Origin: a virus | Taxonomy: Duplodnaviria; Heunggongvirae; Uroviricota; Caudoviricetes | IMG/VR virus record: IMGVR_UViG_2622736468_000005 | Strand: one strand, 5' to 3' | Length of the DNA stretch: 56,715 bases | In this document: piece after piece, positions 40,866 to 56,715 of the stretch | How the letters are laid out: each line of letters opens with the position of its first letter | How positions within the stretch are numbered: the first letter of the stretch is position 1 | Position numbers and translations under genes: made by a program | The notes under the pieces: model-generated | What the model was told of the DNA's origin: nothing | The model's input: only the letters and a program-made list of their open reading frames with translations | Database searches by the model: none

Positions 40866-40886
40866 CAAAAAACCCGCCGAAGCGGG
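40866..40886 (-). terminator. intrinsic terminator after HTH-peptidase gene (cccgc-ttcg-gcggg + T-run)
   Basis: Minus-strand acccgcttcggcgggttttttgtttttatttt immediately after stop at 40892. Confidence 0.6.
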
Positions 40887-40891
40887 TATAC

Positions 40892-41998: not shown

Positions 41999-42626
41999 TG
42001 CTCACATCCAAATCTTTATCCTTCGTACGCCGACGAAGAGGCACCTTATTAATCTCCGCTTCGTCAGGGAGTGTGTTATAATCAAGAGGCATAAGCGGCA
42101 TCGATGCTGTAGATTGATGAGAAACTATACTAATCTGAGCACCATAAGTATTAAATCCAACAAGAGCTACCTCCCAACGAGGCAGTGTGGACTCTAATTC
42201 ACCATCGCCCTCTTCGGATAAAAAAGGCTCAGCTATGACTCGCCATGTAATATCTTGCTCAGCCTCAACATCACCAAACAATGAGAGCTGCTCATACTCT
42301 ACTTTATTTCGACGCAGACGATGTTTCTTTTTGGGGTTATTAATGCAATCTTTGGTAAATTGTAGCGGAACTTTATTTAAAGCAACTACATAGTCCAACC
42401 CCTTGGAAATCATCTCAAGGCCAGGAATTGCATCTTCATTTTGAATAAGATGATTTCTGACCCAATCATAAGCCCTTACACCTTCAGACCAGTTGCTGTC
42501 TAATGCGTGCTTATGATAGTACAGCTGCTCAAGTACGTTAGCGATCTCCGCCAACAAGTGGCGAACATAGTTTTCAGCAAGATAAGGTTGAAATTCCCAA
42601 CAAGGAGCTAACTGATTTTCATTCAT
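41976..42626 (-). CDS. hypothetical protein, upstream partner of HTH-ImmA/IrrE gene (unknown family)
   Basis: 216-aa ORF overlapping the next gene by 23 bp (operon); promoter-like TTGACA...TATGTG upstream; AT-rich. Confidence 0.5.
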   Translation of the reverse strand: MNENQLAPCWEFQPYLAENYVRHLLAEIANVLEQLYYHKHALDSNWSEGVRAYDWVRNHLIQNEDAIPGLEMISKGLDYVVALNKVPLQFTKDCINNPKKKHRLRRNKVEYEQLSLFGDVEAEQDITWRVIAEPFLSEEGDGELESTLPRWEVALVGFNTYGAQISIVSHQSTASMPLMPLDYNTLPDEAEINKVPLRRRTKDKDLDVSSDGTSGE

Positions 42627-42701
42627 TTCAAGTTTCGCTTTTTTTAGAATTCGTAAACCACATATTTTCGCATTTTTCTATTTTTGTCAACCAGACTAAT
42701 G

Positions 42702-42722
42702 CAAAAACCCGCCGAAGCGGGT
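42702..42722 (-). terminator. intrinsic terminator after hokD; same hairpin sequence as 40866..40886
   Basis: Minus-strand aacccgcttcggcgggttttt; identical stem-loop to the downstream copy. Confidence 0.55.
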
Positions 42723-42791
42723 TAAGTGCGGGTGCGTTGAGGATGCCTGGCACATCAGAGGTGGCGGGAGATTACTCCCCCGCCGGGTCTC

Positions 42792-42947
42792 TTACTCCTC
42801 AGGTTCGTAAGCTGTGAAGACAGCGACCTCCGTCTGGCCGGTTCGGATTCGTACCTCGCAGAGGTCTTTCCTCGTTACCAGTGCCGTCACAATGACGGTT
42901 AAACAGATGACGATCAGGGCGATTAGCATCGCCTTTTGCTGCTTCAT
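42792..42947 (-). CDS. hokD: Hok/Gef-family small membrane toxin (HokD/RelF-like)
   Basis: 51-aa ORF MKQQKAMLIALIVICLTVIVTALVTRKDLCEVRIRTGQTEVAVFTAYEPEE with AAGGAG RBS; track ORF 42792..43004 carries an in-frame N-terminal extension. Confidence 0.8.
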   Translation of the reverse strand: MKQQKAMLIALIVICLTVIVTALVTRKDLCEVRIRTGQTEVAVFTAYEPEE

Positions 42948-43238
42948 AGCCTGCTTCTCCTTGCCTTTCGGCACGTAAGAGGCTAACCTACGTGTGTAGA
43001 GCATAGATATGGCCTCAGATTAATGTTAAGCGTCTTGCCGGACGCGTAATGTTAACTGGGGCTTTTCTCTATCTGCCTTTTGGTGTTCATGCCTGAGACA
43101 GATAGCCTCAAGCACCCGCTGCAATTCTACTTAACTCTCCTTTTCCCGCAAACCGTTTTTATCCCCAGCGGCAAATCGAATACACCACCAGCGCCACCGC
43201 CATCGCAATTCCTACCGTTGTTAATGCTTCAGGCCAGG

Positions 43239-43583
43239 TCATCGTAAAATATCCTCCACGCTTATCAGTCCGTTCCGCTCCAGATAACTCATCGCCTTAT
43301 CCGGTAATTTGCAGTCTGGCTTCGCTTTCCTCAGTTGCCAGGTTAACTGCTTTACCAGCATGGTTAACTCATCGACCAGACGCTGATATCCCACTGGTTT
43401 GTATTCATGCAATTTACCGGCTGGCTCTGCTGCCAGCGATACCAGTGCGATTTCCAGAACAGCAATATCCATCTTATATGTGCGGATGATGTCATGGTCG
43501 ATTGTGCCCGGTATGCACAGTCTCTGTGCTTCAATAGTCTCCTCTGCGTGAGCTATTAACTGCTCTCTGGTAAAAGTCGTCAT
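43239..43583 (-). CDS. hypothetical protein (nin-region)
   Basis: 114-aa ORF; N-terminus MTTFTREQ... is paralogous to next small ORF. Confidence 0.4.
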
Positions 43584-43750
43584 GCCGTAGCCCCTTCTTG
43601 ATATTTTTCAAACCAGAACACAACCGGCTCTGCTTCCAGCGATGCCAGCGCAATCCGTGCCAGTTCCATTTGTTCACCACGGGTAAGCCCGTTTTCAAGC
43701 GGGTTTTTAATGAACAATTCAATACGTTCTTTGGTAATAGTGGTCATGTG
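43583..43750 (-). CDS. hypothetical small protein (55 aa)
   Basis: [62 protein letters not shown]; shares MTT-T...IA.ASLEAEP pattern with 43239..43583. Confidence 0.3.
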
Positions 43751-43757
43751 TTACTCC

Positions 43758-44021
43758 TTAACCCGCAGTGCTTTCAACTGATGAGGGGAACAAAATCTTT
43801 TCATCAAACCCTGCATTCATATCATGGACAGCAACACACCAATCCATTGACGAACGATTATCAAGAGCCTCCATGATTTCATCCATGCGGCGCAGGTCAT
43901 ACAGGTAAATGCTTTTATCGCCAATGGTGTAAAAACCAATTTTTTTCGGTGATGGACAGCGATCAAGAACGTCCTGTAATTCGTTCAACCATGCCTGTTC
44001 TTTTTTTGTCAAAGTTGCCAT
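43758..44021 (-). CDS. hypothetical protein
   Basis: 87 aa from internal Met (MATLTKKEQAWLNELQD...) of track ORF 43758..44111; AAGGA RBS. Confidence 0.35.
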   Translation of the reverse strand: MATLTKKEQAWLNELQDVLDRCPSPKKIGFYTIGDKSIYLYDLRRMDEIMEALDNRSSMDWCVAVHDMNAGFDEKILFPSSVESTAG

Positions 44022-44022
44022 A

Positions 44023-44241
44023 TCAGTTTTCCTTATACGGATTAATTTTATTGTGCAGTGTGTTGAACGGAGCCCATACCACGTCGTTATACAATTCAAT
44101 AACTGGCTCAATTATTTTTCCGATTCCCCATACCAGAATTAACGGGGATATCGGTATCATCAACACGATAAACAGAATGAGAAACAAAAATTCTGTCGCT
44201 CTACTTTTTCGCGGATATTCTTTTCTGAATAATGTAGGCAC
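44023..44241 (-). CDS. hypothetical small membrane protein
   Basis: 72-aa ORF with one strongly hydrophobic segment (FLFLILFIVLMIPISPLILVWGIG). Confidence 0.35.
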   Translation of the reverse strand: MPTLFRKEYPRKSRATEFLFLILFIVLMIPISPLILVWGIGKIIEPVIELYNDVVWAPFNTLHNKINPYKEN

Positions 44242-44242
44242 A

Positions 44243-44458
44243 TCACTCTCCTTTGTTGCTCCTCAAAATTTTATGCCCTGGCGCAAAAGCACGCGTTTTG
44301 TCGGCACTTATTCGCCACCCATCTTTACGTGCCTCTTTTGCACAGCCAGCCCATGACGTACCGATATACTCACCAAAATCTGGCGACTGATATTTGCCAT
44401 CCGTACACTGGCGGCAATCACAATAGAGATGCATGGTATAACTTGCGGCAATACCCAT
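44243..44458 (-). CDS. hypothetical Cys-rich small protein
   Basis: 71-aa ORF, CDCRQCTDG motif. Confidence 0.3.
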   Translation of the reverse strand: MGIAASYTMHLYCDCRQCTDGKYQSPDFGEYIGTSWAGCAKEARKDGWRISADKTRAFAPGHKILRSNKGE

Positions 44459-44818
44459 TCAGCCTCCTTTGATGCCCGTGTTTACAACCAGGCAGGCCTC
44501 CTTGAGTACCCAGTCAATAGCGTCTTTCCATGCTCCGGTTTCAACTGGCGGATCCTCACGCCGTACCTGTTCATAAAAGCGCACAGCTTTAACCAGTCCT
44601 TCTGATGTCACCGAAGCTGGCGGGGCCGTGAATAACGCCTGAATTTCATAGTTTGGTCTGTCGTTACAATCCTCTTTTGTCGGGACATATTTCCAGTCAC
44701 CAACCCACTGCTTCCCCTGAAAGTCTGTAACGCCTTTTTTCACGTAGCGATATCGCCATGCCACTGGTTTTGCCTGCCCTACCTTTTCATGCCCTTCCTG
44801 ATAATTAATCTCGCTCAT
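44459..44818 (-). CDS. hypothetical protein
   Basis: 119-aa ORF, translationally coupled to neighbours. Confidence 0.35.
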   Translation of the reverse strand: MSEINYQEGHEKVGQAKPVAWRYRYVKKGVTDFQGKQWVGDWKYVPTKEDCNDRPNYEIQALFTAPPASVTSEGLVKAVRFYEQVRREDPPVETGAWKDAIDWVLKEACLVVNTGIKGG

Positions 44819-45261
44819 TCATCGCCCCACTCATCACAATATGCTTCGACCGGTGTTTTCCCTGCTTCATAATCATCACGCCATGCTTCAGCATCAGCGG
44901 CACTTCCACCGCGTAACTCTGCATAATCCATTAACAGTTCATGCCATTCTTCAAAACTGGCGTTATATTTAGTTGAACCAAAATCAGCCATTTTGTTCTT
45001 CCTCTTCGTCTTTTATTTCGTGGTATGAGTAATTGCAGTAGTTAAAGAAAATATCTTTAGCTTCATCCTGTATTTCATCTGGTGTTGCATCATCATCCAC
45101 TTCGAATTCATCCTCGAAATCTCCACCGGCTATTCCCGTTTCAATAATTATTTTGAATTTTCGCATTTCACTACCGCCCTTTCGGACGGCCTCCTGATGT
45201 TCTGAGGGTGCAGAAATCCCTCCGGTTAAGGATTTGATTTTATTTACAGTGCTAAATTTAA

Positions 45262-45618
45262 TTATTCAGTTCTGGATTTTGTCGCCCTGCATATCCGCGC
45301 TTTCGCGTTACGCTCAATCTGAATTAACTTTTCTATATTTTTCCGCCTTTCCTGTTCCTCCTGGCGCAATAGCCTTACATCATCTGCCAGTCTGGTTTCT
45401 CTTTTCGCCACAGAGAGCATCCAGTCAAACGGCTCCACAACTGCACCGCAGATTTTACAGCGGACCTGACGCTCTTTTTCGTCAACCCGAACAGAGGCGT
45501 GATGACAATATGGTCTTTCCGATGGCTCATAAAGAAAATTAACCTGATTACGAGGGTCATCCTCTTTTACCGGAAATAAAACGATATTGCTTAACTCATC
45601 CTCTGGTTTTATTTCCAT
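45262..45618 (-). CDS. hypothetical protein with zinc-ribbon-like Cys/His pattern
   Basis: 118-aa ORF (CHH...CKIC). Confidence 0.3.
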   Translation of the reverse strand: MEIKPEDELSNIVLFPVKEDDPRNQVNFLYEPSERPYCHHASVRVDEKERQVRCKICGAVVEPFDWMLSVAKRETRLADDVRLLRQEEQERRKNIEKLIQIERNAKARICRATKSRTE

Positions 45619-46057
45619 GCTCCTCTCCTTTGATGCGAATGCCAGCGACGCGTAATGCGTGTTCTAAGTCAATCAGGTAAAGCCAACTGCCATTTTCTTT
45701 AGGTATCATGACATGTCGCTCATCTGCATTTATCGGGTGTCCATATCGAAGGTCGTAGCGAGTCGGTAATTGAACTTCCCGCGCTTCCAGTTCAGCAATA
45801 CGCTTGCTCCCATCAGAGATAACGCCTTCGTAATACTCACGCTGCTCTTTGAGTTGTGATTTTGCTTCTTCCAGTCCATCCAGCAAATCAGCGATAATAT
45901 CCGCTTCCCGATGACGGATGTGACGCTTAAACGCAGCAAGAGCCGCATCACAATCCCGTTCAGCATTTGGGCTGTCCGGGATAGCCTGATACCACGCCAG
46001 CGTCGACTGATAGTTTTGTGCTGCCTCACGAAGCGCCTCATAGTTAACCTCTCTCAT
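45596..46057 (-). CDS. hypothetical protein
   Basis: 153-aa ORF. Confidence 0.35.
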   Translation of the reverse strand: MREVNYEALREAAQNYQSTLAWYQAIPDSPNAERDCDAALAAFKRHIRHREADIIADLLDGLEEAKSQLKEQREYYEGVISDGSKRIAELEAREVQLPTRYDLRYGHPINADERHVMIPKENGSWLYLIDLEHALRVAGIRIKGEEHGNKTRG

Positions 46058-46419
46058 TGAGCCACCTCCTGATAAATCACTGCATGCCCCAGTTTCTCCG
46101 CCAGTGCCAGCTCTGCCTTAGCGCCCGCTGACCGCTGCCAGCCATTCAGCATGTAAATCGCATCCACACAACGAATCATTGCCATGCAAATATCCATGTA
46201 GTGCGGCTGTGTCAGCCCGTCCGGAAGTACTGCCGGGTTTAAGACGGTATGCCCTTCCCGTTTCAGTTCCTCTTCCGCCTTGTGAAACGCCTCACGGTTG
46301 AAATTTTCATATCCCGTCATTGGACCGGCAATATAAACTCTGACCCTCACTCCATCACCTCCTGAAAGTTTCCCCGATAGAACGCCAGCACACGCTGCAT
46401 AACTTCGCTCTGGCGGCAC
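46054..46419 (-). CDS. DUF4406-like (nucleoside 2-deoxyribosyltransferase-like) protein; start probably downstream of track start
   Basis: VRVRVYIAGPMTGYENFNREAF motif; 73-bp overlap with upstream ORF suggests shorter true N-terminus. Confidence 0.4.
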   Translation of the reverse strand: MPPERSYAACAGVLSGKLSGGDGVRVRVYIAGPMTGYENFNREAFHKAEEELKREGHTVLNPAVLPDGLTQPHYMDICMAMIRCVDAIYMLNGWQRSAGAKAELALAEKLGHAVIYQEVAQ

Positions 46420-46754
46420 TCACGACAAATTATGTTCTGCCGTCTGTTGTAACGACGTATTTCTCCGTCAGGTAACTTTCGAATCAGTGTCGGGTCAGCA
46501 GCCTTCTCCGGTGTCTTACGCCATACGCGATACGCCTGCTCTGATGGAAATACCCCGCAACCAGAGAGCCAGACATCACCACTGGCCGCAAGCGCACCAG
46601 ATAAACGACGAATAGCGGTCTTACTGACACCCGTTTTATCTGCCAGTTGTCGAAAAGTTTCTCGTCCGCTCAGGCGCACGAATTCCACAATGCGCGCCTT
46701 CACTTCTTCCCGCTCTTCTGGTGTAAATACTTTTGCCATAAGCGCCTCCGGCAA
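46347..46754 (-). CDS. hypothetical protein with HTH-like segment
   Basis: 135-aa ORF. Confidence 0.3.
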   Translation of the reverse strand: MPEALMAKVFTPEEREEVKARIVEFVRLSGRETFRQLADKTGVSKTAIRRLSGALAASGDVWLSGCGVFPSEQAYRVWRKTPEKAADPTLIRKLPDGEIRRYNRRQNIICRECRQSEVMQRVLAFYRGNFQEVME

Positions 46755-47543
46755 TCACTTTTCCGATACAACACGGCGGGAAGAATCAGTAATCTGTCGA
46801 ACAATATCCCGGTGCTTGTTCACCTCCCGCAGCGCGGCGCAGACTCGCTCCCACTTCTGAACATCACTTTTCGCCCTGCGCAGCGCCAGGTTTGCCCTGC
46901 GAAGGGACGGAAAAATCAGCTCATCTGCTTGCGTTTCGGTAAACGATGGCAACGGCTGCACAATGTCCGCCACAGTTTCTGTTTTAATTTCTTCCTGTGT
47001 TGCGGCTTCCCGGACTGGTAACGCAGCACCTGCTGGCTGAGGAAAGGCCTTACCATCACTTTCCGTTACCAGCGCGGCTTTCGGCTCTGCTGGTAAATTA
47101 TCGCCCGGCATGCAGTAACGAAATTTATCGTTCTGATTAACGCGTGCCAGCCGCCCCGTTGCGGTTACCACCGCCAGCGTGGAGGCAACCTTGCGAGTAC
47201 TGACGCCGAACTTACCCGCCAGTTCCTCACACGTTTTAGCACCATCCTGACCGATAAACTCAATCATCATGTCTGCGGTAACTTTTTGTTCGACCTCCCC
47301 GGTCAGCATATCCTGTGCTTCAGATTTTACTGGCCGCTCTTCGGTTACCCGGGATTCACCTTCGCCAGCCAGAAACCAGGTGTGACCAGTTTTATCAACG
47401 ACGCCATTTCTTTTGAGTTCCCACAGCTCGTTGAGAACCTCTTCACGACTGATATCAAGTCGCGCGGCCAGTTCTACCGATGTGGCTTTTCCCATTGCTT
47501 TCAGTGCGTCAAATACGGTTTCCATTAAAATTTCCTCCGACAA
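46755..47543 (-). CDS. hypothetical protein with winged-helix-like repeats
   Basis: 262-aa ORF. Confidence 0.35.
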
Positions 47544-47558
47544 AATCGTTTCTCAGAT

Positions 47559-48224
47559 TCAAATAAAACCAGCTGCCTTCCGGCGTTCGTATTCCTGTTT
47601 CAGCCGTTCAATTGGCGTTGGCCCTTGCGGGTGTTTCGCCCCTTCCAGTTGTCGTCGCACTGGCGGAACACTCATCCCGTTACCAACATGCTTTGCCCAT
47701 TTCGTCAGTTGCCGTTCCGCAAGTCGTTTTAACTCACCCTGCGTCATCTGGCGCTCAATCCCTCTGGTACGCATTTCGAGGCAGATGTGGTACAGCACAG
47801 GCTGAGGCCACGGATATTTGTCGCTTCCGTCATATCGCCAGGACTCATCACGCCAGCGGCGGTACTCCTCCATCACAGCATCCACCGTCAGGCCAAATGG
47901 ATTGGCCCCGCTTTCTGAAATCAGCGCCACAAACTCAGCCAGGTCCGGAGGCCATGTTTCACCCGCCCGGCAGCGGTCCATGCACTGGCGGCAGACCTGT
48001 CGGATTTGCTGCTCAGTCATCGCGCCAATCTGTGCAATCCAGAGCTTCGAAGGTGCGGCCCCGTTCTTCTGGGTCCAGCGGTTCGAATAAACCTCCCCCA
48101 TGAGTTCCCACAGCTTCCAGACCGTTTCCGTCGCTGATAAATCCGTTTTCACGTTCCCACTGCTCACGTGCTGCCCGAATTTCCTGAACTGCCCGTGATG
48201 CGGTGCCACCTGGTGCTGCTGCAT
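47559..48224 (-). CDS. replication protein P-like (helicase loader); start uncertain
   Basis: 221-aa ORF; C-terminal half resembles lambda P (…YPWPQPVLYHICLEMR…, C-terminal basic tail); 211-bp overlap with upstream ORF. Confidence 0.55.
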   Translation of the reverse strand: MQQHQVAPHHGQFRKFGQHVSSGNVKTDLSATETVWKLWELMGEVYSNRWTQKNGAAPSKLWIAQIGAMTEQQIRQVCRQCMDRCRAGETWPPDLAEFVALISESGANPFGLTVDAVMEEYRRWRDESWRYDGSDKYPWPQPVLYHICLEMRTRGIERQMTQGELKRLAERQLTKWAKHVGNGMSVPPVRRQLEGAKHPQGPTPIERLKQEYERRKAAGFI

Positions 48225-49028
48225 GGTTTACCCCCTTGCTGACTGGCTTAACCTGCGCCCTGACGTGATTTACGTGACGGGCGAATTTCTGCTCCCACTG
48301 AACCTGCGTGAAAACTTTCCCCTCCGCTGCCCAGTAGTCCCGGAAAGCGGCAAGTTCAGCAGGTGTAAATTCCGGCTCCGGCAAAGCCATCCCCCACAAC
48401 GCAGCCCGTCGTCGAAAATCCGGCGACGGATGCCAGTCATCGACCATCGGAAATTTCCCGATGGGTTCGCTCAGTCCATCCAGGGATGCAGGTTCTGCTG
48501 CCTGCAACGGCGTACCACTCGACTCACTGGTCGGAGCACTCTCGCGCACGTGCGCGTTATGTGTGGGGTTTAATTCTTTATCTGTATCTTTATCTGTCGT
48601 GACTCGTCGTGACACCCCTCATTCTGTTTTCGTAATTTTTCCCTCTCGCGCTGCGCTCTCTTGCGCTCTGCCGGGGATTTCGCGGTTTGTGAAACGTTGC
48701 CATTGTCCTCTTTCAGTACCTGGCGTTTTTCCCATCCGGTGATTAAATCTCCATCAAGTACCCGCCCCTGCATTGCCTGTAAAATTGAATCAATTACTTC
48801 TTCCGTCACATCAAGCGCACTTGCTAAATCTTCCGTCGTGACATCAATGTGACCACGTAGTGACACGCCGTGACATGTCGTGACATTTCGTGACGCGCTC
48901 ACCAGAAGGTGGATATACACTGCCATCACTGTTGCAATTGGCTGCCCTGACACCCTGGCAATTGTTCGCCACTTAGGGTCATTTGGCATGTCATGCCATA
49001 ATCTGAGCCAGGCGTTAGCCATACTCAC
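48013..49028 (-). CDS. replication initiator (O-like) carrying origin iterons; two track ORFs probably one gene separated by a 1-bp homopolymer frameshift at 48615..48618
   Basis: N-terminal ORF (48570..49028) ends ...KQNEGCHDESRQIKIQIKN-stop; adding one G in the G4 run gives ...KQNEGVSRRVTTDKDTDKELNP... continuous with 48013..48615 (which starts on GTG right after a stop). Confidence 0.45.
48849..48898. repeat. iterons: five ~10-bp direct repeats TGACAnnnCG (origin of replication inside O-like gene)
   Basis: gtgaccacgtag tgacacgccg tgacatgtcg tgacatttcg tgacgcgctc at 10-bp period; two more copies at ~48595..48615. Confidence 0.6.
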
Positions 49029-49093
49029 CTCTTCTGATACCGAATCTTTTTACTCACAAATTGCCGGAAGTGATCCGGTATGAATATTGCGAG

Positions 49094-49519
49094 TCAATGC
49101 ACAGCCACAATATTTCCTGCAGGGCCACCACGATTCATCTGGTTGAAACCAGCGATCGCCACTGCGACAAAATCATCAGCGTCTCTCACCAGTCGTTCCC
49201 GCGTCTCCACCAGCTCCCGAAAATAAGCTGAACTGTGGCTGCGCATTCGGGCCACCAGCAGAGGCGGCATTGCTTTTTCGATCGCTGGTAACAACGCCTG
49301 AATTTTTTTAACCGCATCAGGAGTGTCTTTCTCCACCCAGCGGAAAATTTTCTGGGTATTGCGAGCCAGGGCTTCCGGATGGCTGTCGTCATATAATTCC
49401 GGGAACGTCATACCAAGCTCAAAATAAGCCCGGGTTATTTCAGCTGCCGGAACTTTTTCACCGTCCGGATGCGCCCAGGCATTCATCGCCATGCGGATGT
49501 GCTCATGCCTGATTTTCAT
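49094..49519 (-). CDS. YdaT-like / phage CII-like regulatory protein
   Basis: 141-aa ORF MKIRHEHIRMAMNAWAHPDGEKVP... immediately downstream of cro-like gene. Confidence 0.55.
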   Translation of the reverse strand: MKIRHEHIRMAMNAWAHPDGEKVPAAEITRAYFELGMTFPELYDDSHPEALARNTQKIFRWVEKDTPDAVKKIQALLPAIEKAMPPLLVARMRSHSSAYFRELVETRERLVRDADDFVAVAIAGFNQMNRGGPAGNIVAVH

Positions 49520-49777
49520 GAATCAACTCCGATGCATTTGGTGTGTTAGCCTTGAATCCAACAGGTAAGCCGTCGGTTGGATTCGGGTAAATATCAGGCC
49601 GGAGTTCATGAGGTGTAACCTCGAAATTCGTTACTTCAGCAACACGTAATGCTTTTTCAGGGCTGAATCTTTCATAGCCCCCAGCACTCGACTTACATGC
49701 ACCTGAGATAAACCCGTTAGCTTCCCAAACTGTAGCTGGGTGATATGTTTCTCTTTTAAATAGTCTCTTAAGTTCAT
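49503..49777 (-). CDS. Cro-like / YdaS-like HTH protein, apparently frameshifted at a C5 run at 49678..49682
   Basis: Frame 1: MNLRDYLKEKHITQLQFGKLTGLSQVHVSRVLG...; adding one G gives ...VLGGYERFSPEKALRVAEVTNFEVTPHELRPDIYP... with the expected HTH-then-LRPD layout; divergent from repressor gene. Confidence 0.45.
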
Positions 49778-49884
49778 AGCCAACCTTCTACGTTATGCCT
49801 CGAGCAAATATTAGCCCCGCTAATTTTAAAGATCAATAGCCAGACTATCTTTGATAATATTGGTAAAACAAATAAACTCTATGT

Positions 49885-50346
49885 ATGAAAAAAACACGCG
49901 AAGTGATTGCAACTCCAGAAGCGAGCAAGAATTTAAAAGCCGCATGGAATGCAAGAAAAAAAGAGCTGAAGCTGACTCAAGAGCTGGCGGCTGAGTTGTT
50001 GGGATTCGAATCTCAAGGCACCGTTAGCCAGTATCTGAACGGCAAGATACCGGTAAATACCGACGCTGCGCTAAAATTTGCGGCTCTGTTAAAGGTAAAA
50101 CCAGAGGACATTCGAGAAGACCTTAAAGACTTAATGAATTATGTAAGATCATCAGATACTTATGATGATAACTTTTCAGGCAAAGGATGGAGGCTGGTCA
50201 ATGAAGAACAGGCAGAGTTACTTAACCTCTTCGAGATTCTACCTGCGTCAGAAAAAGCCAAACTCCTTAACCAGCTACGTGGACTAAACAAGCTCTACGA
50301 GGAAGCCTTCGAGAACATGCTGGCACTAAAGAAACGTAACCAGTAG
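49885..50346 (+). CDS. prophage repressor, DicA/RacR-like HTH protein (no S24 peptidase domain)
   Basis: 153-aa ORF; HTH (LTQELAAELLGFESQGTVSQYLNGK); C-terminus resembles DicA; divergent from cro-like gene. Confidence 0.6.
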   Translation: MKKTREVIATPEASKNLKAAWNARKKELKLTQELAAELLGFESQGTVSQYLNGKIPVNTDAALKFAALLKVKPEDIREDLKDLMNYVRSSDTYDDNFSGKGWRLVNEEQAELLNLFEILPASEKAKLLNQLRGLNKLYEEAFENMLALKKRNQ

Positions 50347-50377
50347 CCACCGCTCACTACCCCATCCACAACAAAAA

Positions 50378-50410
50378 AACCGACGTCTTAGTCGGTTTTT
50401 TTGTGCCATA
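50378..50410 (+). terminator. intrinsic terminator after repressor gene
   Basis: aaaaaaaccgac-gtctta-gtcggttttttt. Confidence 0.55.
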
Positions 50411-50493
50411 ACTTCTGCAAATCAGCTGTATAACTAATATTTTTCCCTTGAAAAAACATTTACATAGTTACCAAATCAAAAATATCATACGCC

Positions 50494-50525
50494 ATACTGT
50501 TGACTTAAAACATCCGCGTTACTAA
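50494..50525 (+). promoter_or_regulatory. candidate early-left promoter (TTGACT-17 bp-TAATAT)
   Basis: Near-consensus sigma70 elements upstream of ydfA-like gene. Confidence 0.4.
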
Positions 50526-50599
50526 TATTTCTATCAAGAACAGCACGGCGCTGTAGGTTTTAGTTCCGCCACCCGGCGTTAAGGGGAAATGAGGTCAGC

Positions 50600-50755
50600 A
50601 TGGATACTATCGAGCTTGGCAACAACGAATCTCTGGTGTACGGCGTGTTTCCCAACCAGGACGGCACATTCACCGCGATGACGTATACCAAAAGCAAAAC
50701 GTTTAAAACCGAAAATGGTGCCCGTCGCTGGCTGGAAAGAAACTCAGGTGAGTGA
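50600..50755 (+). CDS. ydfA: YdfA-like small protein
   Basis: 51-aa ORF MDTIELGNNESLVYGVFPNQDGTFTAMTYTKSKTFKTENGARRWLERNSGE; strong RBS AAGGGG; below track cutoff. Confidence 0.55.
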   Translation: MDTIELGNNESLVYGVFPNQDGTFTAMTYTKSKTFKTENGARRWLERNSGE

Positions 50756-50756
50756 T

Positions 50757-50885
50757 ATGGATTTCGACACAATCATGGAAAAGGCTTACGAAGAATACTT
50801 CGATGGTCTTGCCGAAGGCGAAGAAGCTCTCAGCTTCAGTGAATTTAAACAGGCGCTTTCCAGTTCGGGAAAATCTAACGGCTGA
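50757..50885 (+). CDS. ydfB: YdfB-like small protein
   Basis: 42-aa ORF MDFDTIMEKAYEEYFDGLAEGEEALSFSEFKQALSSSGKSNG immediately after ydfA. Confidence 0.5.
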   Translation: MDFDTIMEKAYEEYFDGLAEGEEALSFSEFKQALSSSGKSNG

Positions 50886-50914
50886 TAAGCGAAACAGCAC
50901 CGCGAGGAATCAGT

Positions 50915-51133
50915 ATGCAGAAACGAGAACCCGTCATCATCGCGCCAGACTATACCGATGATGAACTTTATGAGTGGATGCGCCAGAAAATTAATGCAGT
51001 GCAGGATCTGAAATGGGCCAATGAAGCCAGGACTAAGCAGGCTGAAAATCTGTCCGCTCTGGAGCAGGATATCACCAGGCTGGAAAAAGCAGCGGCATTA
51101 AGCATTGCCAGAATGGTTACATACCCACGTTAA
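50915..51133 (+). CDS. ydfC: YdfC-like protein
   Basis: 72-aa ORF MQKREPVIIAPDYTDDELYEWMRQKINAVQDLKWANEA... Confidence 0.55.
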   Translation: MQKREPVIIAPDYTDDELYEWMRQKINAVQDLKWANEARTKQAENLSALEQDITRLEKAAALSIARMVTYPR

Positions 51134-51155
51134 TAGCTAACCAACGAGGCTAATA

Positions 51156-51557
51156 ATGGAATTTAAAGATTTACCAATGCCATTCCAGGAAATGGCAGCG
51201 AATGTGGTTCGCTCTCAACTGGCGACTCTTGACCTGAGTACTGTAGAAAAGGAAACCATCGATACTATATCCGGTAACGTGCGTCGTGCCTTTATAGGTC
51301 TGTATGAAGAGAAGCGCCTATTCGGCGGACAGAATTCGCCTGAAAACAAGAATCAAGCAAATGATGAGAAGCTGAAACACATTATCGCCTTACTTTTGGA
51401 AGACGCAAAACGTCTACAGCAACTGGAACCAAATGCAGGCACAGAGGCCCGCATTTGGATTGCCATGAAATCACTCAAATGTGAAAGCAGTGATTATTTC
51501 AAAACAACAATTAAAACTACTCAACTTTCGGGAGAGCTACTGAAGAAATTGCCATAA
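51156..51557 (+). CDS. hypothetical protein
   Basis: 133-aa ORF with RBS; not part of the K-12 Qin dicBF operon as I recall it. Confidence 0.4.
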   Translation: MEFKDLPMPFQEMAANVVRSQLATLDLSTVEKETIDTISGNVRRAFIGLYEEKRLFGGQNSPENKNQANDEKLKHIIALLLEDAKRLQQLEPNAGTEARIWIAMKSLKCESSDYFKTTIKTTQLSGELLKKLP

Positions 51558-51795
51558 GAGCATGGTCTTTCTCTTGTTCTGCAAGATGAGCATTAATACC
51601 TGGTATGGTTTTTTCAAATTTATCTATCTGTTGAATAACAACTTCGCGGTATACGTTTGTTTTTGTACCACCAAGCGCAGCCGTTAATGCAGAAAGCATA
51701 TTTAGTATCATATCAGTGCGATATGAAAGAATCCTGATAGCTTCATCTTGTTTTTCAATAATAGATTGCAGGGCCTCAATTTGCTTTTTATCCAT
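51517..51795 (-). CDS. hypothetical protein (coiled-coil), opposite strand within early-left region
   Basis: 93 aa from Met at 51795 (MDKKQIEALQSIIEKQDEAIRIL...) with AGGAGGG RBS; AT-rich. Confidence 0.4.
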   Translation of the reverse strand: MDKKQIEALQSIIEKQDEAIRILSYRTDMILNMLSALTAALGGTKTNVYREVVIQQIDKFEKTIPGINAHLAEQEKDHALMAISSVALPKVE

Positions 51796-52126
51796 TTCAC
51801 CCTCCTGAGGGTTGGTAATTAAGGAGTTCTCCACGGGTCAGGTGGAGTGCGTGCGCCGGACACGGGTGAGCATCCGGCACTGACAGTTTACTGAAAGGAT
51901 ATGTCCCTGAAAAGTCAGGGCATAACGCGAAAGCGCACGGCGAAATTGGTCTCTCTGTACGGTGTCGTTAAATTTAGTTCGACCGTGCGCTTCCGGTTGT
52001 GGCAATCCGCGAAATGGCGCGGCGGTAAGTATGGCGGGGTTATTCCTTCCCCGCTGAGGACACCGGGTTGTCAGGTTGACCATACGCTTAAGTGACAACC
52101 CCGCTGCAACGCCCTCTGTTATCAAT

Positions 52127-52184
52127 TTTCTGGTGACGTTTGGCGGTATCAGTTTTACTCCGTGACTGCTCTGCCGCCCTTTTT
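52127..52184 (+). ncRNA. dicF: DicF small RNA (cell-division-inhibitor sRNA)
   Basis: Sequence tttctggtgacgtttggcggtatcagttttactccgtgactgctctgccgccc + T-run matches DicF as I recall it; immediately upstream of dicB. Confidence 0.6.
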
Positions 52185-52353
52185 AAAGTGAATTTTGTGA
52201 TGTGGTGAATGCGGCTGAGCGCACGCGGAACAGTTAAAACCAAAAACAGTGTTATGGGTGGATTCTCTGTATCCGGCGTTAATTGTTAACTGGTTAACGT
52301 CACCTGGAGGCACCAGGCACCGCATCACAAAATTCATTGTTGAGGACGCGATA

Positions 52354-52542
52354 ATGGAAACGTTATTACCAAACGTTAATACGTCTGAAGGTTGTTTTGA
52401 TATTGGTGTTCTGCTCAGTAACCGGGAGTTTACTGAAGATGCCATTAATATGAGGAAATATGAGCCTTATCTGCTCAATTATAATTCCATACTTTCCCGA
52501 ATTGCTCTTCTTGAACTTGGTATTTTCGGAGAACGTCAATGA
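52354..52542 (+). CDS. dicB: cell division inhibitor DicB
   Basis: 62-aa ORF METLLPNVNTSEGCFDIGVLLSNREFTEDAINMRKYEP... resembles K-12 DicB; RBS GAGGA. Confidence 0.7.
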   Translation: METLLPNVNTSEGCFDIGVLLSNREFTEDAINMRKYEPYLLNYNSILSRIALLELGIFGERQ

Positions 52543-52727
52543 CTTCAGCATTTGCACTGATGATGACGGTTTTTCTTATAACGGGTGAATCACAGAATGT
52601 GATTACCGGAATTTATGCAAGTAAAGAATCCTGCCTCCAGGCAAGAGACGAGCAAAAAATTTCTGGTGAATGCCTCCCGCTAAAAAAAGTATCGCTGTAC
52701 CTGAATAACGAAACACCGGCTGGATAA
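52539..52727 (+). CDS. ydfD: YdfD-like small membrane protein
   Basis: 62-aa ORF MTSAFALMMTVFLITGESQNV... overlapping dicB stop. Confidence 0.5.
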   Translation: MTSAFALMMTVFLITGESQNVITGIYASKESCLQARDEQKISGECLPLKKVSLYLNNETPAG

Positions 52728-52822
52728 CCCTCCAGCCATATTAACACCATACCAACGGATTAAAAATGCCAGCAATGGCAGGGATTCGTTCACCCTGAAA
52801 TCTGTAATGAGGTTAAAACAAA

Positions 52823-55294
52823 ATGAGTAAGGTCTTTATTTGCGCTGCTATTCCTGACGAACTGGCAACAAGGGAAGAAGGCGCTGTGGCTGTAGCCACA
52901 GCCATTGAAGCTGGCGACGAACGCCGTGCTCGAGCAAAATTTCACTGGCAATTCCTGGAACATTATCCGGCTGCTCAGGACTGCGCTTATAAATTTATTG
53001 TCTGCGAGGATAAACCTGGCATACCCCGCCCTGCCCTCGATTCATGGGATGCTGAATATATGCAGGAAAACCGCTGGGATGAGGAGTCTGCTTCCTTTGT
53101 CCCGGTTGAGACTGAATCAGATCCGATGAACGTCACTTTTGACAAGCTGGCCCCTGAAGTACAGAACGCTGTCATGGTTAAGTTCGACACATGTGAAAAC
53201 ATCACCGTTGATATGGTTATTAGCGCACAGGAATTGTTGCAGGAAGACATGGCAACATTCGACGGACATATCGTTGAAGCGTTGATGAAAATGCCAGAAG
53301 TTAACGCCATGTATCCGGAGCTTAAGCTGCATGCCATCGGGTGGGTTAAGCATAAATGTAAGCCTGGTGCCAAATGGCCCGAAATTCAGGCAGAGATGCG
53401 CATCTGGAAAAAACGTCGCGAAGGTGAACGCAAGGAAACCGGAAAATACACGTCTGTTATTGATCTCGCCCGCGCCAGAACCAATCAACAGCACAGTGAA
53501 AATTCAACAGGAAAAATCAGCCCGGTCATTGCTGCCATTCATCGCGAATACAAGCAGACATGGAAAACACTGGATGACGAACTGGCCTACGCTCTCTGGC
53601 CTGGTGATGTGGATGCCGGAAACATTGACGGCAGCATCCATCGCTGGGCAAAAAATGAAGTTATCGACAACGACCGCGAAGACTGGAAGCGTATCTCGGC
53701 ATCAATGCGCAAACAGCCTGATGCCCTTCGCTACGACCGCCAAACTATTTTTGGCCTTGTCCGTGAGCGTCCGATCGACATTCACAAAGATCCCATAGCA
53801 CTGAACAAATATATCTGCGAATACCTGACGACAAAGGGCGTGTTTGAGAATGAAGAAACAGACCTGGGCACTGTTGATGTTCTCCAGTCATCAGAAACAC
53901 AAACTGATGCAGTGGAAACTGAGGTATCTGATATCCCAAAAAATGAAACCGCGCCGGAAGCTGAACCATCTGTAGAGCGTGAGGGGCCGTTCTATTTCCT
54001 CTTCGCAGATAAGGACGGAGAAAAATGCGGTCGCGCAAACAAACTTTCTGGTCTGGATAAGGCACTGGCTGCTGGCGCCACTGAAATCACAAAAGAAGAA
54101 TATTTTGCCCGAAAAAATGGCACATACACGGGCTTACCGCAAAATGTAGATACCGCTGAAGATTCAGAACAACCAGAGCCGATAAAAGTTACCGCTGACG
54201 AAGTAAACAAAATTATGCAGGCAGCCAATATCAGCCAGCCTGACGCCGATAAGTTGCTTGCTGCATCACGTGGTGAATTTGTTGAAGGGATTAGTGACCC
54301 GAATGATCCGAAATGGGTTAAGGGGATCCAGACCCGCGATTCTGTGAACCAGAACCAGCATGAATCGGAACGGAACTACCAAAAAGCGGAACAAAACAGC
54401 CCAAATGCGTTACAAAACGAGCCAGAAACGAAACAGCCTGAACCAGTGGCGCAACAGGAAGTGGAAAAAGTCTGCACCGCCTGCGGTCAGACCGGCGGCG
54501 GCAACTGCCCTGATTGTGGCGCGGTGATGGGCGACGCAACATACCAGGAAACATTCGATGAAGAGTATCAGGTTGAAGTTCAGGAAGATGATCCGGAGGA
54601 AATGGAAGGCGCTGAACATCCACACAAGGAGAACACTGGCGGCAATCAGCATCACGATAGCGATAATGAAACTGGCGAGACGGCAGATCGCTCAATTAAG
54701 GTGAACGGTCATCACGAAATCACATCCACCAGCAGGACGTGTGACCATCTAATGATCGACCTTGAAACCATGGGAAAAAATCCTGATGCCCCGATCATCT
54801 CAATAGGTGCAATATTTTTCGATCCGCAAACCGGAGATATGGGACCGGAATTTAGTAAGACTATCGATCTGGAAACTGCTGGCGGAGTCATTGATCGGGA
54901 CACCATTAAATGGTGGCTTAAGCAATCACGCGAAGCGCAATCTGCCATTATGACCGATGAAATCCCGTTAGATGATGCACTGTTACAATTGCGGGAATTT
55001 ATCGACGAAAACTCCGGTGAATTTTTTGTTCAGGTTTGGGGAAATGGAGCCAACTTCGACAACACGATTTTGCGCCGTTCATACGAACGGCAGGGGATCC
55101 CCTGCCCGTGGCGTTACTACAACGATCGCGATGTACGCACAATCGTTGAGCTGGGGAAAGCCATAGACTTCGATGCCAGAACGGCTATTCCATTCGAAGG
55201 TGAGCGCCATAATGCACTTGATGACGCCCGTTACCAGGCAAAATACGTTTCAGCTATCTGGCAAAAACTGATCCCAAATCAGGCTGATTTTTAA
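52823..55294 (+). CDS. large phage exonuclease (YdfE-like N-terminus, zinc ribbon, C-terminal DEDDh 3'-5' exonuclease domain)
   Basis: 823-aa ORF; C-terminal ~180 aa with DEDD exonuclease motifs (MIDLETMG, FDNTIL, HNALDDA); CxxC...CxxC ribbon. Confidence 0.65.
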   Translation: MSKVFICAAIPDELATREEGAVAVATAIEAGDERRARAKFHWQFLEHYPAAQDCAYKFIVCEDKPGIPRPALDSWDAEYMQENRWDEESASFVPVETESDPMNVTFDKLAPEVQNAVMVKFDTCENITVDMVISAQELLQEDMATFDGHIVEALMKMPEVNAMYPELKLHAIGWVKHKCKPGAKWPEIQAEMRIWKKRREGERKETGKYTSVIDLARARTNQQHSENSTGKISPVIAAIHREYKQTWKTLDDELAYALWPGDVDAGNIDGSIHRWAKNEVIDNDREDWKRISASMRKQPDALRYDRQTIFGLVRERPIDIHKDPIALNKYICEYLTTKGVFENEETDLGTVDVLQSSETQTDAVETEVSDIPKNETAPEAEPSVEREGPFYFLFADKDGEKCGRANKLSGLDKALAAGATEITKEEYFARKNGTYTGLPQNVDTAEDSEQPEPIKVTADEVNKIMQAANISQPDADKLLAASRGEFVEGISDPNDPKWVKGIQTRDSVNQNQHESERNYQKAEQNSPNALQNEPETKQPEPVAQQEVEKVCTACGQTGGGNCPDCGAVMGDATYQETFDEEYQVEVQEDDPEEMEGAEHPHKENTGGNQHHDSDNETGETADRSIKVNGHHEITSTSRTCDHLMIDLETMGKNPDAPIISIGAIFFDPQTGDMGPEFSKTIDLETAGGVIDRDTIKWWLKQSREAQSAIMTDEIPLDDALLQLREFIDENSGEFFVQVWGNGANFDNTILRRSYERQGIPCPWRYYNDRDVRTIVELGKAIDFDARTAIPFEGERHNALDDARYQAKYVSAIWQKLIPNQADF

Positions 55295-55358
55295 TGTTCA
55301 ACCCCGGTCGTTGCCCACCAGCTATAGTGGCGGCGACCATGATTAGCGAACGACGCTC

Positions 55359-55607
55359 ATGGCAAGACTTATTCTGCTCACTGAGTGGGCAAAAGAGGAA
55401 TTCAGTGAACCGGTCCCTACTCCGAGTACGTTAAGTAAATACGCTAAAGCCGGAATGATATTTCCTCTCCCCAAAAAAGTTGGAAGACGCTGGCGAGTGG
55501 ATCCGCAAGCTCGCTTTGTCGGAATGGTAAACAAGCCGGAGGTGATCGCCACAGATCACCCTGCTTTGAAGAGGATACTGGAAGATGGCGCGCCCGCGAA
55601 AATATAA
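55359..55607 (+). CDS. xis: excisionase (Xis-like)
   Basis: 82-aa ORF immediately upstream of and overlapping integrase; MARLILLTEWAKEEF...KVGRRWRV motif. Confidence 0.6.
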   Translation: MARLILLTEWAKEEFSEPVPTPSTLSKYAKAGMIFPLPKKVGRRWRVDPQARFVGMVNKPEVIATDHPALKRILEDGAPAKI

Positions 55608-56715
55608 AACCGATGTTCCGGGATTATCTCCGTATTTTGACAAAAGAAATAACAAAGTTTACTGGCGTTACAGGCATCCCATAACAGGCAAAAATCACGG
55701 TCTCGGCAGTATTGACCAGAAACTGGCAGAAACTATTGCAGCAGAAGCGAACAGCCGTCTTGCCCGGCAGCAAATGGAACAAATGCTCAGTCTGCAGGAG
55801 AAAATTATTAGTGATACCGGCGGTTCATCAACCGTTACCATTTTTCTGAATAATTACAGAAAAATTCAACAGGAAAGATATGAAAACGGCGAGATCAAAC
55901 TCAACACGCTGAAACAGAAAGCGGCCCCTCTCAGGGTATTTGATGAACGTTTTGGCACCAGACCGTTAGATGCCATAACCGTAAAAGATGTGGTATCAGT
56001 ACTGGAAGAGTACAAGGCCAGAGGACATAACAGAATGGGACAAATTTTCAGGAAAGTACTGATCGATGTTTTCCGGGAAGCTCAGCAAACGGGCGATGTC
56101 CCGCCAGGCTTTAACCCTGCAGAATCGGCAAAAAAACCGCAGGTGCGGATATCAAGACAGCGACTGACTTTTGATGAGTGGATGATGATTTATAACGCAG
56201 CGGAAAAGAATGGTTACTTTTTACAGCGCGGTATGCTGCTGGCACTGATGACAGGCCAGCGCCTTTCAGATATTTGCAAAATGCAATTTTCGGATATCCG
56301 GGATGGTTATCTTCATGTCGAACAGCAAAAAACAGGAACCCGGATTGCCATCCCTCTGGCTCTGCGTTGCGATAAATTAAATCTCACCCTGGATGATGTA
56401 GTGTCATCCTGCCGCGATTGCGTTCTTAGTCCGTGGCTATTGCACCACCATCACGCGAAAGGGACAGCTAAGCGCGGCGGGATGGTTAAGCCAGCAACAT
56501 TAACCGTTGCATTTAAAAAAGCCCGGGATTCTGTGGATTACAACTGGCGTGCTAATGGCACCCCACCCTCTTTCCATGAGCAGAGATCTTTATCAGAGCG
56601 ATTGTTCAGAGAGCAGGGGGTTGATACCAAAATTTTGCTAGGCCATTCGAATCAAAAAATGACCGATATTTACAACGATGTACGCGGTAAGGAGTGGAAA
56701 AAACTGGTCATTTGA
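55585..56715 (+). CDS. int: tyrosine site-specific integrase (lambda Int family)
   Basis: 376-aa ORF; N-terminal MARPRKYK arm-binding region; C-terminal catalytic region with R...HxxR...Y (LLGHSNQKMTDIY). Confidence 0.85.
   Translation: MARPRKYKTDVPGLSPYFDKRNNKVYWRYRHPITGKNHGLGSIDQKLAETIAAEANSRLARQQMEQMLSLQEKIISDTGGSSTVTIFLNNYRKIQQERYENGEIKLNTLKQKAAPLRVFDERFGTRPLDAITVKDVVSVLEEYKARGHNRMGQIFRKVLIDVFREAQQTGDVPPGFNPAESAKKPQVRISRQRLTFDEWMMIYNAAEKNGYFLQRGMLLALMTGQRLSDICKMQFSDIRDGYLHVEQQKTGTRIAIPLALRCDKLNLTLDDVVSSCRDCVLSPWLLHHHHAKGTAKRGGMVKPATLTVAFKKARDSVDYNWRANGTPPSFHEQRSLSERLFREQGVDTKILLGHSNQKMTDIYNDVRGKEWKKLVI

Follow-up and report, generated by a model that had tools for sequence, protein, structure and literature searches.

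A CI/Cro/CII-type immunity switch with a peptidase-free repressor in a Qin- and Rac-like mosaic prophage of E. coli MRE600, and a ydaS frameshift that is most likely an assembly error

The region from 49094 to 50346 and beyond in the window, i.e. the whole 56,715-nt stretch of IMG/VR record IMGVR_UViG_2622736468_000005 analysed here, is the immunity switch of a lambdoid prophage, encoding a repressor, a Cro-like YdaS and a CII-like YdaT. An initial annotation had placed an immunity region here, and all three genes could be identified, with the repressor divergent from ydaS, which is followed by ydaT. The coordinates it gave for the repressor and ydaS held, whereas ydaT lies mostly outside the interval 49503-50346 that it had named. 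Comparison with annotated relatives yields the gene context cI-cro-cII-O-P. The prophage combines Qin-like with Rac-like modules as a mosaic and is inserted beside ompW in the genome of E. coli MRE600, a laboratory strain in wide use for studies of ribosomes and tRNA; across 22,586 nt the window matches CP014197.1 with 100% identity, and CP014197 is the MRE600 sequence (PMC12851939). ABU 83972 and NCTC86 encode exactly this repressor protein, and over 1371 nt the ABU 83972 sequence shows a single difference from the window, the length of the homopolymer run in ydaS. The features discussed below are:

40562..40738, minus strand: Rem-like small ORF, possible antirepressor, 58 aa, far from the switch
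49094..49519, minus strand: ydaT (CII analogue), 141 aa, intact
49503..49777, minus strand: ydaS (Cro analogue), 275 nt as given, frame broken
49509..49526, unstranded: candidate YdaT operator OM, TTGATT-N6-AATCAA with one mismatch, spanning the ydaT start codon and the end of ydaS
49678..49682, unstranded: C5 run (G5 on the coding strand), frameshift site, six bases in relatives, probable consensus error
49807..49827, unstranded: 21-bp near-perfect palindrome AATATTAGC-ccc-GCTAATTTT, candidate operator over the -10 element and spacer of the ydaS promoter
49851..49878, plus strand: predicted repressor promoter, -35 TTGATA, 16 nt, -10 TAAACT, 9 of 12 positions in the promoter scan
49885..50346, plus strand: CI-analogue repressor, 153 aa, N-terminal HTH, short helical C-terminal part, no peptidase
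50373..50402, plus strand: stem-loop and T-run resembling an intrinsic terminator, 3' of the repressor, read from the sequence and not listed by the scan
50431..50530, plus strand: leftward dicBp-like control region with two exact CTAATATTT copies, 50434..50442 and 50522..50530
50600..52542, plus strand: leftward operon of ydfA, ydfB, ydfC, a 133-aa ORF, DicF RNA and dicB
52128..52179, plus strand: DicF RNA (Rfam DicF, 76.7 bits)
52354..52542, plus strand: dicB, from its translation

The repressor carries a Pfam HTH_3 domain at residues 23-75 (38.6 bits, cut-off 23) and no other Pfam family, and its N-terminal HTH matches the lambda CI N-terminal domain in the PDB with an E-value of 2.6e-4. 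About 75 residues remain past the HTH. The initial annotation had called the protein DicA/RacR-like, of which only the first half can be retained, and in a qualified form. The NCBIfam DicA model NF007257 scores 35.1 bits, below its cut-off of 101, in an alignment that spans repressor residues 18-152 and model positions 7-132 of 135, while BLAST against K-12 DicA returns the C-terminal 42 aa with 38% identity (E 1e-4), which tentatively suggests a distant DicA relative of the same architecture rather than a DicA orthologue. Against K-12 RacR, BLASTP gave zero matches at E up to 10 and a MAFFT alignment 12% identity; a RacR-like identity was discarded on the BLASTP result.

That the repressor lacks a LexA-like S24 domain had also been stated, with a C-terminal peptidase domain on HMM search named as the contrary finding. 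No S24 peptidase was found in Pfam (E up to 0.1), PHROGs or NCBIfam, where the only matches were HTH families and the DicA model, and no AG or CG dipeptide, i.e. no Ala-Gly or Cys-Gly cleavage bond, occurs anywhere in the 153-aa protein. Since both the domain and the bond are missing, RecA-driven autocleavage of the repressor is unlikely, as the initial annotation had supposed, and a non-cleavable repressor agrees with what is published for DicA (bioRxiv 10.1101/2023.04.14.536235). The protein thus shares with the lambda CI/LexA type the homology of the N-terminal HTH as well as role and position in the switch, but differs in having neither S24 domain nor Ala-Gly/Cys-Gly bond and in its tail of about 75 residues, predicted to be helical at low confidence: a single-sequence AlphaFold2 model, with a mean pLDDT of only 49, predicts zero strands.

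YdaT matches PF06254 (39.1 bits, cut-off 21), PHROG 163 'CII-like transcriptional activator' (E 2.5e-45) and, in the PDB, 3C4R (E 3e-91) and 8BT1, the YdaT of CP-933P (E 4e-79); 117 of its 141 residues (83%) are identical to YdaT of a CP-933P-like locus. The YdaT operator OM has been defined (PMC9986795), and the copy at 49509..49526 is the sole match in the window at no more than one mismatch, with 0.19 expected. The CP-933P-like locus (L028) has an exact copy at the same position (4302..4319 in that locus).

The ydaS gene starts with the ATG at 49777, and three-frame translation puts the shift of frame at the C5 run 49678..49682, exactly where it had been located before, so that the first 33 residues are read in a frame that stops at 49631 and the last 58 in a different one that stops at 49503. 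As it stands in the window, the gene encodes a 50-aa product with no match to PF15943. With one G added the gene encodes the intact 91-aa WP_001053425.1, named 'YdaS family helix-turn-helix protein' in RefSeq, and the restored YdaS comes out borderline against PF15943 YdaS_toxin (30.9 bits, cut-off 30) and matches HTH_3, PHROG 35 (E 2e-25) and the PDB 'Cro' entries 8C7K and 8CO2 (E 5e-3). ABU 83972 has C6 at this run and an intact 91-aa 'YdaS family' protein, and a 71-nt test sequence revealed C6 in 178 and C5 in 2 of 180 complete E. coli genomes carrying the gene.

In the intergenic run 49778..49884, for which the initial annotation had recommended an operator search, motifs lie at both divergent promoters. 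The palindrome at 49807..49827 came up as a pair in the repeat search and as one match against 0.01 expected in the pattern search. It overlaps a putative rightward ydaS promoter, TTGATC-17-TAATAT, whose -35 element is at plus-strand positions 49831..49836 and whose -10 element is at 49808..49813; this promoter was read by eye with 8 of 12 positions matching, and the promoter scan gave no call there. Inside the predicted repressor promoter, GATAATATT at 49853..49861 is, by k-mer comparison, a variant of the 9-mer repeated in the leftward control region, where the second CTAATATTT copy overlaps the -10 element of a promoter predicted by the scan before ydfA (TTGACT-17-TAATAT, 50500..50528). The 9-mer has three occurrences in 56.7 kb, all within the immunity region, compared to 0.28 expected and to none of 100 shuffles reaching three. 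The repressor ATG at 49885 is located just 7 nt past the -10 element, and its mRNA is therefore probably leaderless, for which paaR2 and cI provide precedents (PMC8630535). Further along, the genes of the leftward operon were identified by tblastn against annotated relatives, with ydfA matching Pfam DUF1391.

Whether the broken ydaS frame belongs to the strain or to the record was assessed from the assemblies. The MRE600 assembly was built from PacBio P5-C3 reads with HGAP2 and Quiver polishing and without short-read polishing (PMC4825418). A second assembly, GCA_901482365.1, apparently of the same clone, has six bases at the ydaS run; it has in common with the window two real lesions, a deletion of 31 nt that splits the replication gene O and an insertion of the IS3 family upstream of rusA/Q. 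Over 22,586 + 18,154 nt (40.7 kb) the differences between the two sequences amount to a single SNP, an indel of 7 nt and six gaps of one base, each gap being a G/C run that is shorter in the window (11975-9, 17597-600, 26563-6, 27663-9, 40764-8 and 49678-82). The window contains 301 G/C and 640 A/T runs of at least four bases, and six gaps placed among these runs at random would all land in G/C runs with a probability of about 0.001. Other strains carry the longer run at all six sites, and four of the six contractions break genes that are intact elsewhere, namely ydaS, the terminase large subunit (TerL), tail L and tail T. Intact TerL sequence occurs on at least 1000 contigs, while the truncated product has no record in the protein collection searched, which fits a frameshift private to the assembly or, alternatively, the choice of start codon. 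The ydaS gap being one of six alike contractions, it is most likely a one-base consensus error of CP014197.1, and we infer a probably intact ydaS in the real strain. Its reading as a biological feature is thus not borne out, and neither is the suggestion that it affects inducibility, on which a very probable assembly error is uninformative.

We had at first favoured a real rare allele, given G5 in other assemblies, and dropped this reading after comparison with the second assembly. In its full form it holds that MRE600 carries a genuine cro-null mutation, which would uncouple ydaT translation and lock the switch in the repressed state as a step of domestication. An identical G5 allele does exist elsewhere, on at least four nucleotide haplotypes, its 48-aa product being found on 17-29 contigs, many of them short as in short-read assemblies, and NCTC86 has G5 in CP019778.1, B-2207 and the Logan assembly of run ERR2910149. 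[quoted passage not shown] Against this, six bases are present in the near-identical second assembly, the source was assembled from long reads only, and the gap sits among six alike contractions, three others of which hit TerL, tail L and tail T, in a comparison with one SNP in 40.7 kb; we therefore regard a real mutation in MRE600 as unlikely, though with a chance that is not negligible. The same alleles could point to the G6 run as a recurrent hot-spot of real inactivation, a reading to which we assign a small chance; cro-null prophages would then have arisen independently on four or more haplotypes, one of them in Escherich's strain NCTC86. If true, loss of one base might be favoured for locking off a switch whose repressor is non-cleavable, stabilising a domesticated dicBF prophage. 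Programmed ribosomal frameshifting or transcriptional slippage could finally yield full-length YdaS from a G5 template, considering that the break falls within a homopolymer and that the frame beyond it is conserved and open throughout. However, about 99% of copies encode YdaS in a single frame with G6, five consecutive G are few for transcriptional slippage, and by inspection no slippery heptamer with a stimulatory structure was noticed at the break, which renders this exceedingly unlikely.

A different meaning would attach to the frameshift if YdaS and YdaT formed a toxin or toxin-antitoxin module silenced by the repressor, from which the broken frame removes the toxic product. The Pfam names YdaS_toxin and YdaT_toxin suggest as much, and in K-12 the ydaS/ydaT genes of Rac are toxic when derepressed or overexpressed (PMC5700373, PMC5700377). 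Yet no toxicity was found for the CP-933P YdaT matched here at E 4e-79, and YdaS and YdaT of CP-933P behave as DNA-binding regulators in the roles of Cro and CII (PMC8630535, PMC9986795); the context at this locus is cI-cro-cII-O-P, the published YdaT operator is kept at the same position, and Jobling's letter argues likewise from genetic context (PMC5917428). A toxin role here is very unlikely, and the description of the pair as a toxin-like module in the initial annotation has been superseded by the published Cro and CII equivalence (PMC8630535, PMC9986795, PMC5917428).

Turning back to the regulatory switch, its type is already known, and the locus is another case of a well-described CI/Cro/CII switch with a non-self-cleaving repressor. 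In CP-933P of E. coli O157:H7, PaaR2, YdaS and YdaT are the CI, Cro and CII analogues (PMC8630535, PMC9986795). Common to both loci are the divergent layout of repressor and ydaS-ydaT-O, OM over the ydaT ATG (with one mismatch here), a short repressor without peptidase that is probably leaderless, and, from MAFFT alignment and inspection only, an 'ELLxLFxxLPxxE' motif at the repressor C-terminus. In contrast to CP-933P, no paaA2-parE2 toxin-antitoxin pair follows the repressor, BLAST of the repressor against the PaaR2-like protein is not significant (E 13), YdaS is only distantly related at the E-value given above for 8C7K and 8CO2, and the operator repeats are CTAATATT instead of GTTTAGTAA. 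With DicA/DicC of Qin the region shares the leftward operon ydfA-ydfB-ydfC-dicF-dicB and a repressor that aligns full-length with the DicA model, resembles DicA in the C-terminal 42 aa and has no Ala-Gly bond, although it stays at 35 bits compared to the 101-bit cut-off. The Cro-like gene here is of the YdaS family while DicC of Qin is P22-Cro-like, and the CII position is taken by a full YdaT instead of YdfX. Rac, i.e. RacR/YdaS/YdaT of K-12, has the same gene order, and the alignment proposed in the initial annotation relates YdaT (32% identity full-length, E 4e-13) and YdaS (32% over 50 aa, E 1e-5) to their K-12 counterparts, but not the repressor, which has no detectable similarity to RacR; replication genes are of the O/DnaT and lambda-P type here and ydaU/ydaV in Rac. 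Phage Rac-SA53 carries the same immunity module at 97.8% nucleotide identity.

We propose a model in which the 153-aa repressor, combining a CI-like HTH with a DicA-like helical tail and no peptidase, acts as the CI analogue, is probably translated from a leaderless transcript and probably binds AT-rich operators containing CTAATATT, of which the sites described here are candidates. These operators would overlap both the rightward (ydaS-ydaT-O-P...) and the leftward (ydfABC-dicF-dicB) promoters. YdaS would be the Cro analogue that shuts off the repressor promoter, by analogy with CP-933P YdaS, for which EMSA and footprinting showed operator binding between the divergent promoters and repression of the repressor promoter (PMC8630535). 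YdaT, as CII analogue, would recognise the TTGATT-N6-AATCAG repeat spanning the ydaT start codon and switch on a P_RE-like promoter directed at the repressor gene. We infer these pairings of protein and site, and as a whole consider it highly probable that a CI/Cro/CII-type switch working by the proposed mechanism, together with an assembly error in ydaS, explains the locus best.

With a repressor incapable of self-cleavage, derepression would depend either on an antirepressor, for which the Rem-like ORF is a candidate, or on the switch flipping spontaneously, as DicA/DicC has been shown to do (bioRxiv 10.1101/2023.04.14.536235). Rem relieves DicA repression in Qin (same source), and the 58-aa ORF occupies the equivalent place, between hokD and a DUF968 gene, but matches K-12 Rem in its first 26 aa only, at 73% identity. 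It has zero matches in the Pfam copy searched, and its label is based on the precomputed Pfam assignment PF27490 Rem to a 73-aa version in sibling loci; it may possibly be relevant to inactivating an uncleavable repressor. LexA boxes (CTGT-N8-ACAG) occur twice in the window (40386 and 41433), both within coding sequence according to the NCTC86 annotation, with 0.73 expected and 19 of 100 shuffles reaching two, which gives no evidence for an SOS-controlled antirepressor. How repressors of the DicA and PaaR2 type are inactivated, perhaps by a Rem-like antirepressor, is a question of some interest. Caution is advised with the MRE600 assembly, whose probable one-base G/C-homopolymer deletion errors create false pseudogenes (ydaS, TerL, tail L and T) and hence make a defective cro or affected inducibility unsafe to read from CP014197.1. 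The lesions truly bearing on phage production are the O deletion and the IS insertion before rusA/Q, not ydaS.

The immunity region is a known kind of system and was correctly located by the initial annotation. Open reading frames and Pfam matches give a repressor, a divergent ydaS and ydaT in surroundings that are lambdoid by annotation, tblastn and Rfam. What set the locus apart was the break in ydaS, and a sequencing error is the best explanation for it. Left of the switch lie the repressor, ydfA-ydfB-ydfC, DicF RNA, dicB, exonuclease, xis and int, and right of it ydaS, ydaT, O, P, nin-type genes, hok/sok, rusA, Q, lysis genes, and head and tail genes.

49885..50346, plus: repressor (CI analogue), 153 aa, HTH_3 at residues 23-75 (38.6 bits)
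49503..49777, minus: ydaS (Cro analogue), Cro-like HTH, ATG at 49777, first frame stop 49631, second frame stop 49503
49094..49519, minus: ydaT (CII analogue), 141 aa, after ydaS, PF06254 (39 bits)
52128..52179: DicF small RNA, downstream of ydfABC, as in Qin
52354..52542: dicB, intact, downstream of ydfABC, as in Qin

Translation of the window shows a conserved peptide, …YERFSPEKALRVAEVTNFEVTPHELRPDIYP…, in the second ydaS frame up to stop 49503. The 1371 nt around the immunity region have 99.9% matches in 138 complete E. coli genomes. Against ABU 83972 the sole difference is C5 in the window at 49678..49682 versus C6 in ABU 83972 (G5 and G6 on the coding strand), so that the frameshift coordinates first proposed are exact. 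The C6 version encodes an intact 91-aa protein, named 'YdaS family helix-turn-helix protein' in RefSeq. The restored protein scores 30.9 bits on the Pfam YdaS model, barely over the cut-off of 30; it also matches PHROG 35 (E 2e-25) and, in the PDB, two Cro entries (E 5e-3).

Over 10371..32956 the window is 100% identical to CP014197.1, reached through its portal protein, which is the chromosome of E. coli MRE600 (PMC12851939). For this assembly PacBio P5-C3 reads were put through HGAP2 and Quiver, and no short reads were used for polishing; the strain MRE600 has also been deposited under the number NCTC 8164 (PMC4825418). The prophage is also present in another assembly, GCA_901482365.1, where it shares both the IS insertion and the 31-nt deletion in gene O. 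It differs from window 10373..32954 by four one-base gaps and no SNP, while over 38564..56715 the differences are two one-base gaps, a single SNP and, at the IS junction, a 7-nt indel; a shorter locus agrees with the latter comparison. Through the SNP, at 52480, residue 43 of DicB is either Tyr or Asp. All six one-base gaps are shortened G/C runs in the window, and the longer version of each is that of unrelated strains.

11975-9: C5 to C4, breaks tail gene L
17597-600: C4 to C3, breaks tail gene T
26563-6: G4 to G3, breaks the terminase large subunit
27663-9: C7 to C6, intergenic
40764-8: C5 to C4, start of a Rem-like ORF
49678-82: C6 to C5, breaks ydaS

When relatives' proteins are compared with the window by tblastn, ydaS, tail L, tail T and the terminase large subunit are the only genes split by one-base gaps. 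Runs of four or more bases in the window number 301 for G/C versus 640 for A/T, and six gaps out of six that fall in G/C runs and are all contractions are unlike random mutation between two stocks. Contraction of G/C runs is a familiar residual error of long-read consensus. Judged from this comparison, the five further contractions look like consensus errors of CP014197.1, the ydaS break is most likely an artefact, and in the real strain ydaS is very probably intact. A further homopolymer varies between records in ydfC, which is intact in the window with an A5 run (51083-51084), is A6 in ABU 83972 and some other loci, and is marked as frameshifted in ABU 83972 by RefSeq.

The break could instead be read as one instance of a recurrent, possibly selected locking of such prophages by loss of one G. 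Among 180 complete genomes carrying ydaS, a 71-nt probe gave six bases in 178 and five in two, namely B-2207 and NCTC86 CP019778.1; the other NCTC86 assembly, LR217818.1, has six bases and an intact ydaS. In a large protein collection the 48-aa truncated YdaS lies on 17-29 contigs and the intact protein on at least 1000, the immunity regions with the five-base allele fall into four or more nucleotide haplotypes, and a +1 allele (seven bases) was found once. By these genome, contig and haplotype counts the five-base allele occurs in nature, at roughly the 1% level; recurrent, possibly selected locking is unlikely, and a sequencing error remains our reading of the break in the window. The two NCTC86 assemblies, with five versus six G, also differ by a SNP located downstream of the run, about 67 nt away, and the Logan assembly of run ERR2910149 sides with the five-G version of this strain, which is Escherich's.

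With the break a probable assembly error, the proposal that the cro frameshift may affect inducibility loses its ground, and the real lesions lie elsewhere, in O and DUF968. A 31-nt deletion between CGTGAC iteron-like repeats (about 48597-48614), common to both assemblies, splits a 346-aa O/DnaT-like replication protein into ORFs of 150 and 200 aa. Since other strains, in which the neighbouring genes differ, also have it on several short-read contigs, this deletion is real; it may have arisen repeatedly or have been spread by recombination. An IS3-family element, which looks like IS629, splits the DUF968 (ydfU-like) gene that immediately precedes rusA and the Q antiterminator; at its right junction (39390) the two assemblies differ by 7 nt. 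Limits on phage production, if any, come from the O deletion and the IS insertion, not from ydaS.

48570..49028 and 48013..48615: split O/DnaT-like ORFs
38079..39388: IS3-family element, 1310 bp, orfA/orfB, common to both assemblies
38414..38530: ALIL frameshift pseudoknot, marking the IS3-family element

The only Pfam matches of the repressor are Cro/CI-type HTH families, and at its N-terminus it is homologous to the lambda CI N-terminal domain (E 2.6e-4). Of the initial description as DicA/RacR-like, the DicA part is weakly supported: the whole protein aligns with the NCBI DicA model at 35 bits, far below the family cut-off of 101, and its last 42 residues match K-12 DicA at 38% identity (E 1e-4), while no similarity to RacR was found. 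When aligned by MAFFT, the repressor shares the motif ELLxLFxxLPxxE near the C-terminus with both DicA and PaaR2; the BLAST comparison with PaaR2 was not significant. No S24 domain was found in any library searched, Ala-Gly and Cys-Gly dipeptides are absent from the 153 residues, and a low-confidence structure model contains helices only. The repressor had been described as lacking a LexA-like S24 domain, which stands because a recognisable C-terminal peptidase domain was looked for and not found.

Qin DicA has no cleavage bond, is unresponsive to mitomycin C or RecA and is relieved by the antirepressor Rem, and spontaneous flipping of the Qin switch, which depends on DicC, is seen in about 1% of cells (bioRxiv 10.1101/2023.04.14.536235). 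By analogy with Qin DicA/DicC, we would expect derepression through an antirepressor or stochastic flipping, not through RecA. No convincing LexA box was found in the window, and a Rem-like ORF (40562..40738) occupies the same relative position as rem in Qin. This ORF adjoins a gene for a 368-aa HTH and Peptidase_M78 (ImmA/IrrE-type) protein in a cassette (40562..42626) that also holds a 216-aa partner of the M78 gene and is very widespread in E. coli prophages (M78 protein in 13,803 collection blocks); the cassette could bear on repressor inactivation.

YdaS and YdaT had been regarded as toxin-like modules, a view we do not retain. The Pfam toxin names come from toxin-antitoxin prediction and toxicity on overexpression in K-12 (PMC5700373, PMC5700377); in CP-933P no YdaT toxicity is seen and both proteins act as regulators (PMC8630535), as Jobling also argued from genetic context (PMC5917428). 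YdaT matches PDB 3C4R (E 3e-91) and 8BT1, the CP-933P YdaT (E 4e-79), and is 83% identical (117/141 residues) to YdaT of a CP-933P-like locus. CP-933P YdaT is a tetrameric DNA-binding protein of the POU type with TTGATT-N6-AATCAA as its recognition sequence; it activates a P_RE-like promoter and is thus a functional CII (PMC9986795, PMC8630535). A candidate site with one mismatch lies astride the ydaT ATG at 49509..49526; the 56.7 kb contain no other match of this quality (0.19 expected), and the CP-933P-like locus has an exact copy in the same place.

The operator search proposed for 49778..49884 yielded candidates. The 9-mer CTAATATTT has three copies in the 56.7-kb window, all in the immunity region (0.28 expected; no shuffle reaches three); at 49806 and 50522 a predicted early promoter has its -10 hexamer within the 9-mer.

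49806..49814, minus: at the -10 of a ydaS promoter, TTGATC-17-TAATAT
50434..50442: upstream of the leftward promoter
50522..50530: at the -10 of the promoter preceding ydfA, TTGACT-17-TAATAT

A 21-bp palindrome at 49807..49827 has the first copy as one of its halves, and the predicted repressor promoter (49851..49878) has a variant, GATAATATT, overlapping its -35. We regard the CTAATATTT sites, the palindrome and GATAATATT as candidate operators or half-sites, for which the pairing of protein and site is inferred. Since the -10 of the repressor promoter ends 7 nt before the ATG and there is no Shine-Dalgarno sequence, the arrangement suggests a leaderless repressor mRNA; the cI and paaR2 mRNAs are leaderless (PMC8630535). 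Rfam matches elsewhere in the window (33909..34566, 34833..34989, 42942..43117, 2062..2260) comprise two copies of the sRNA STnc100, two tRNA genes, the sok antisense RNA adjoining hok, and an IS009 RNA within the tail-fibre end of the prophage.
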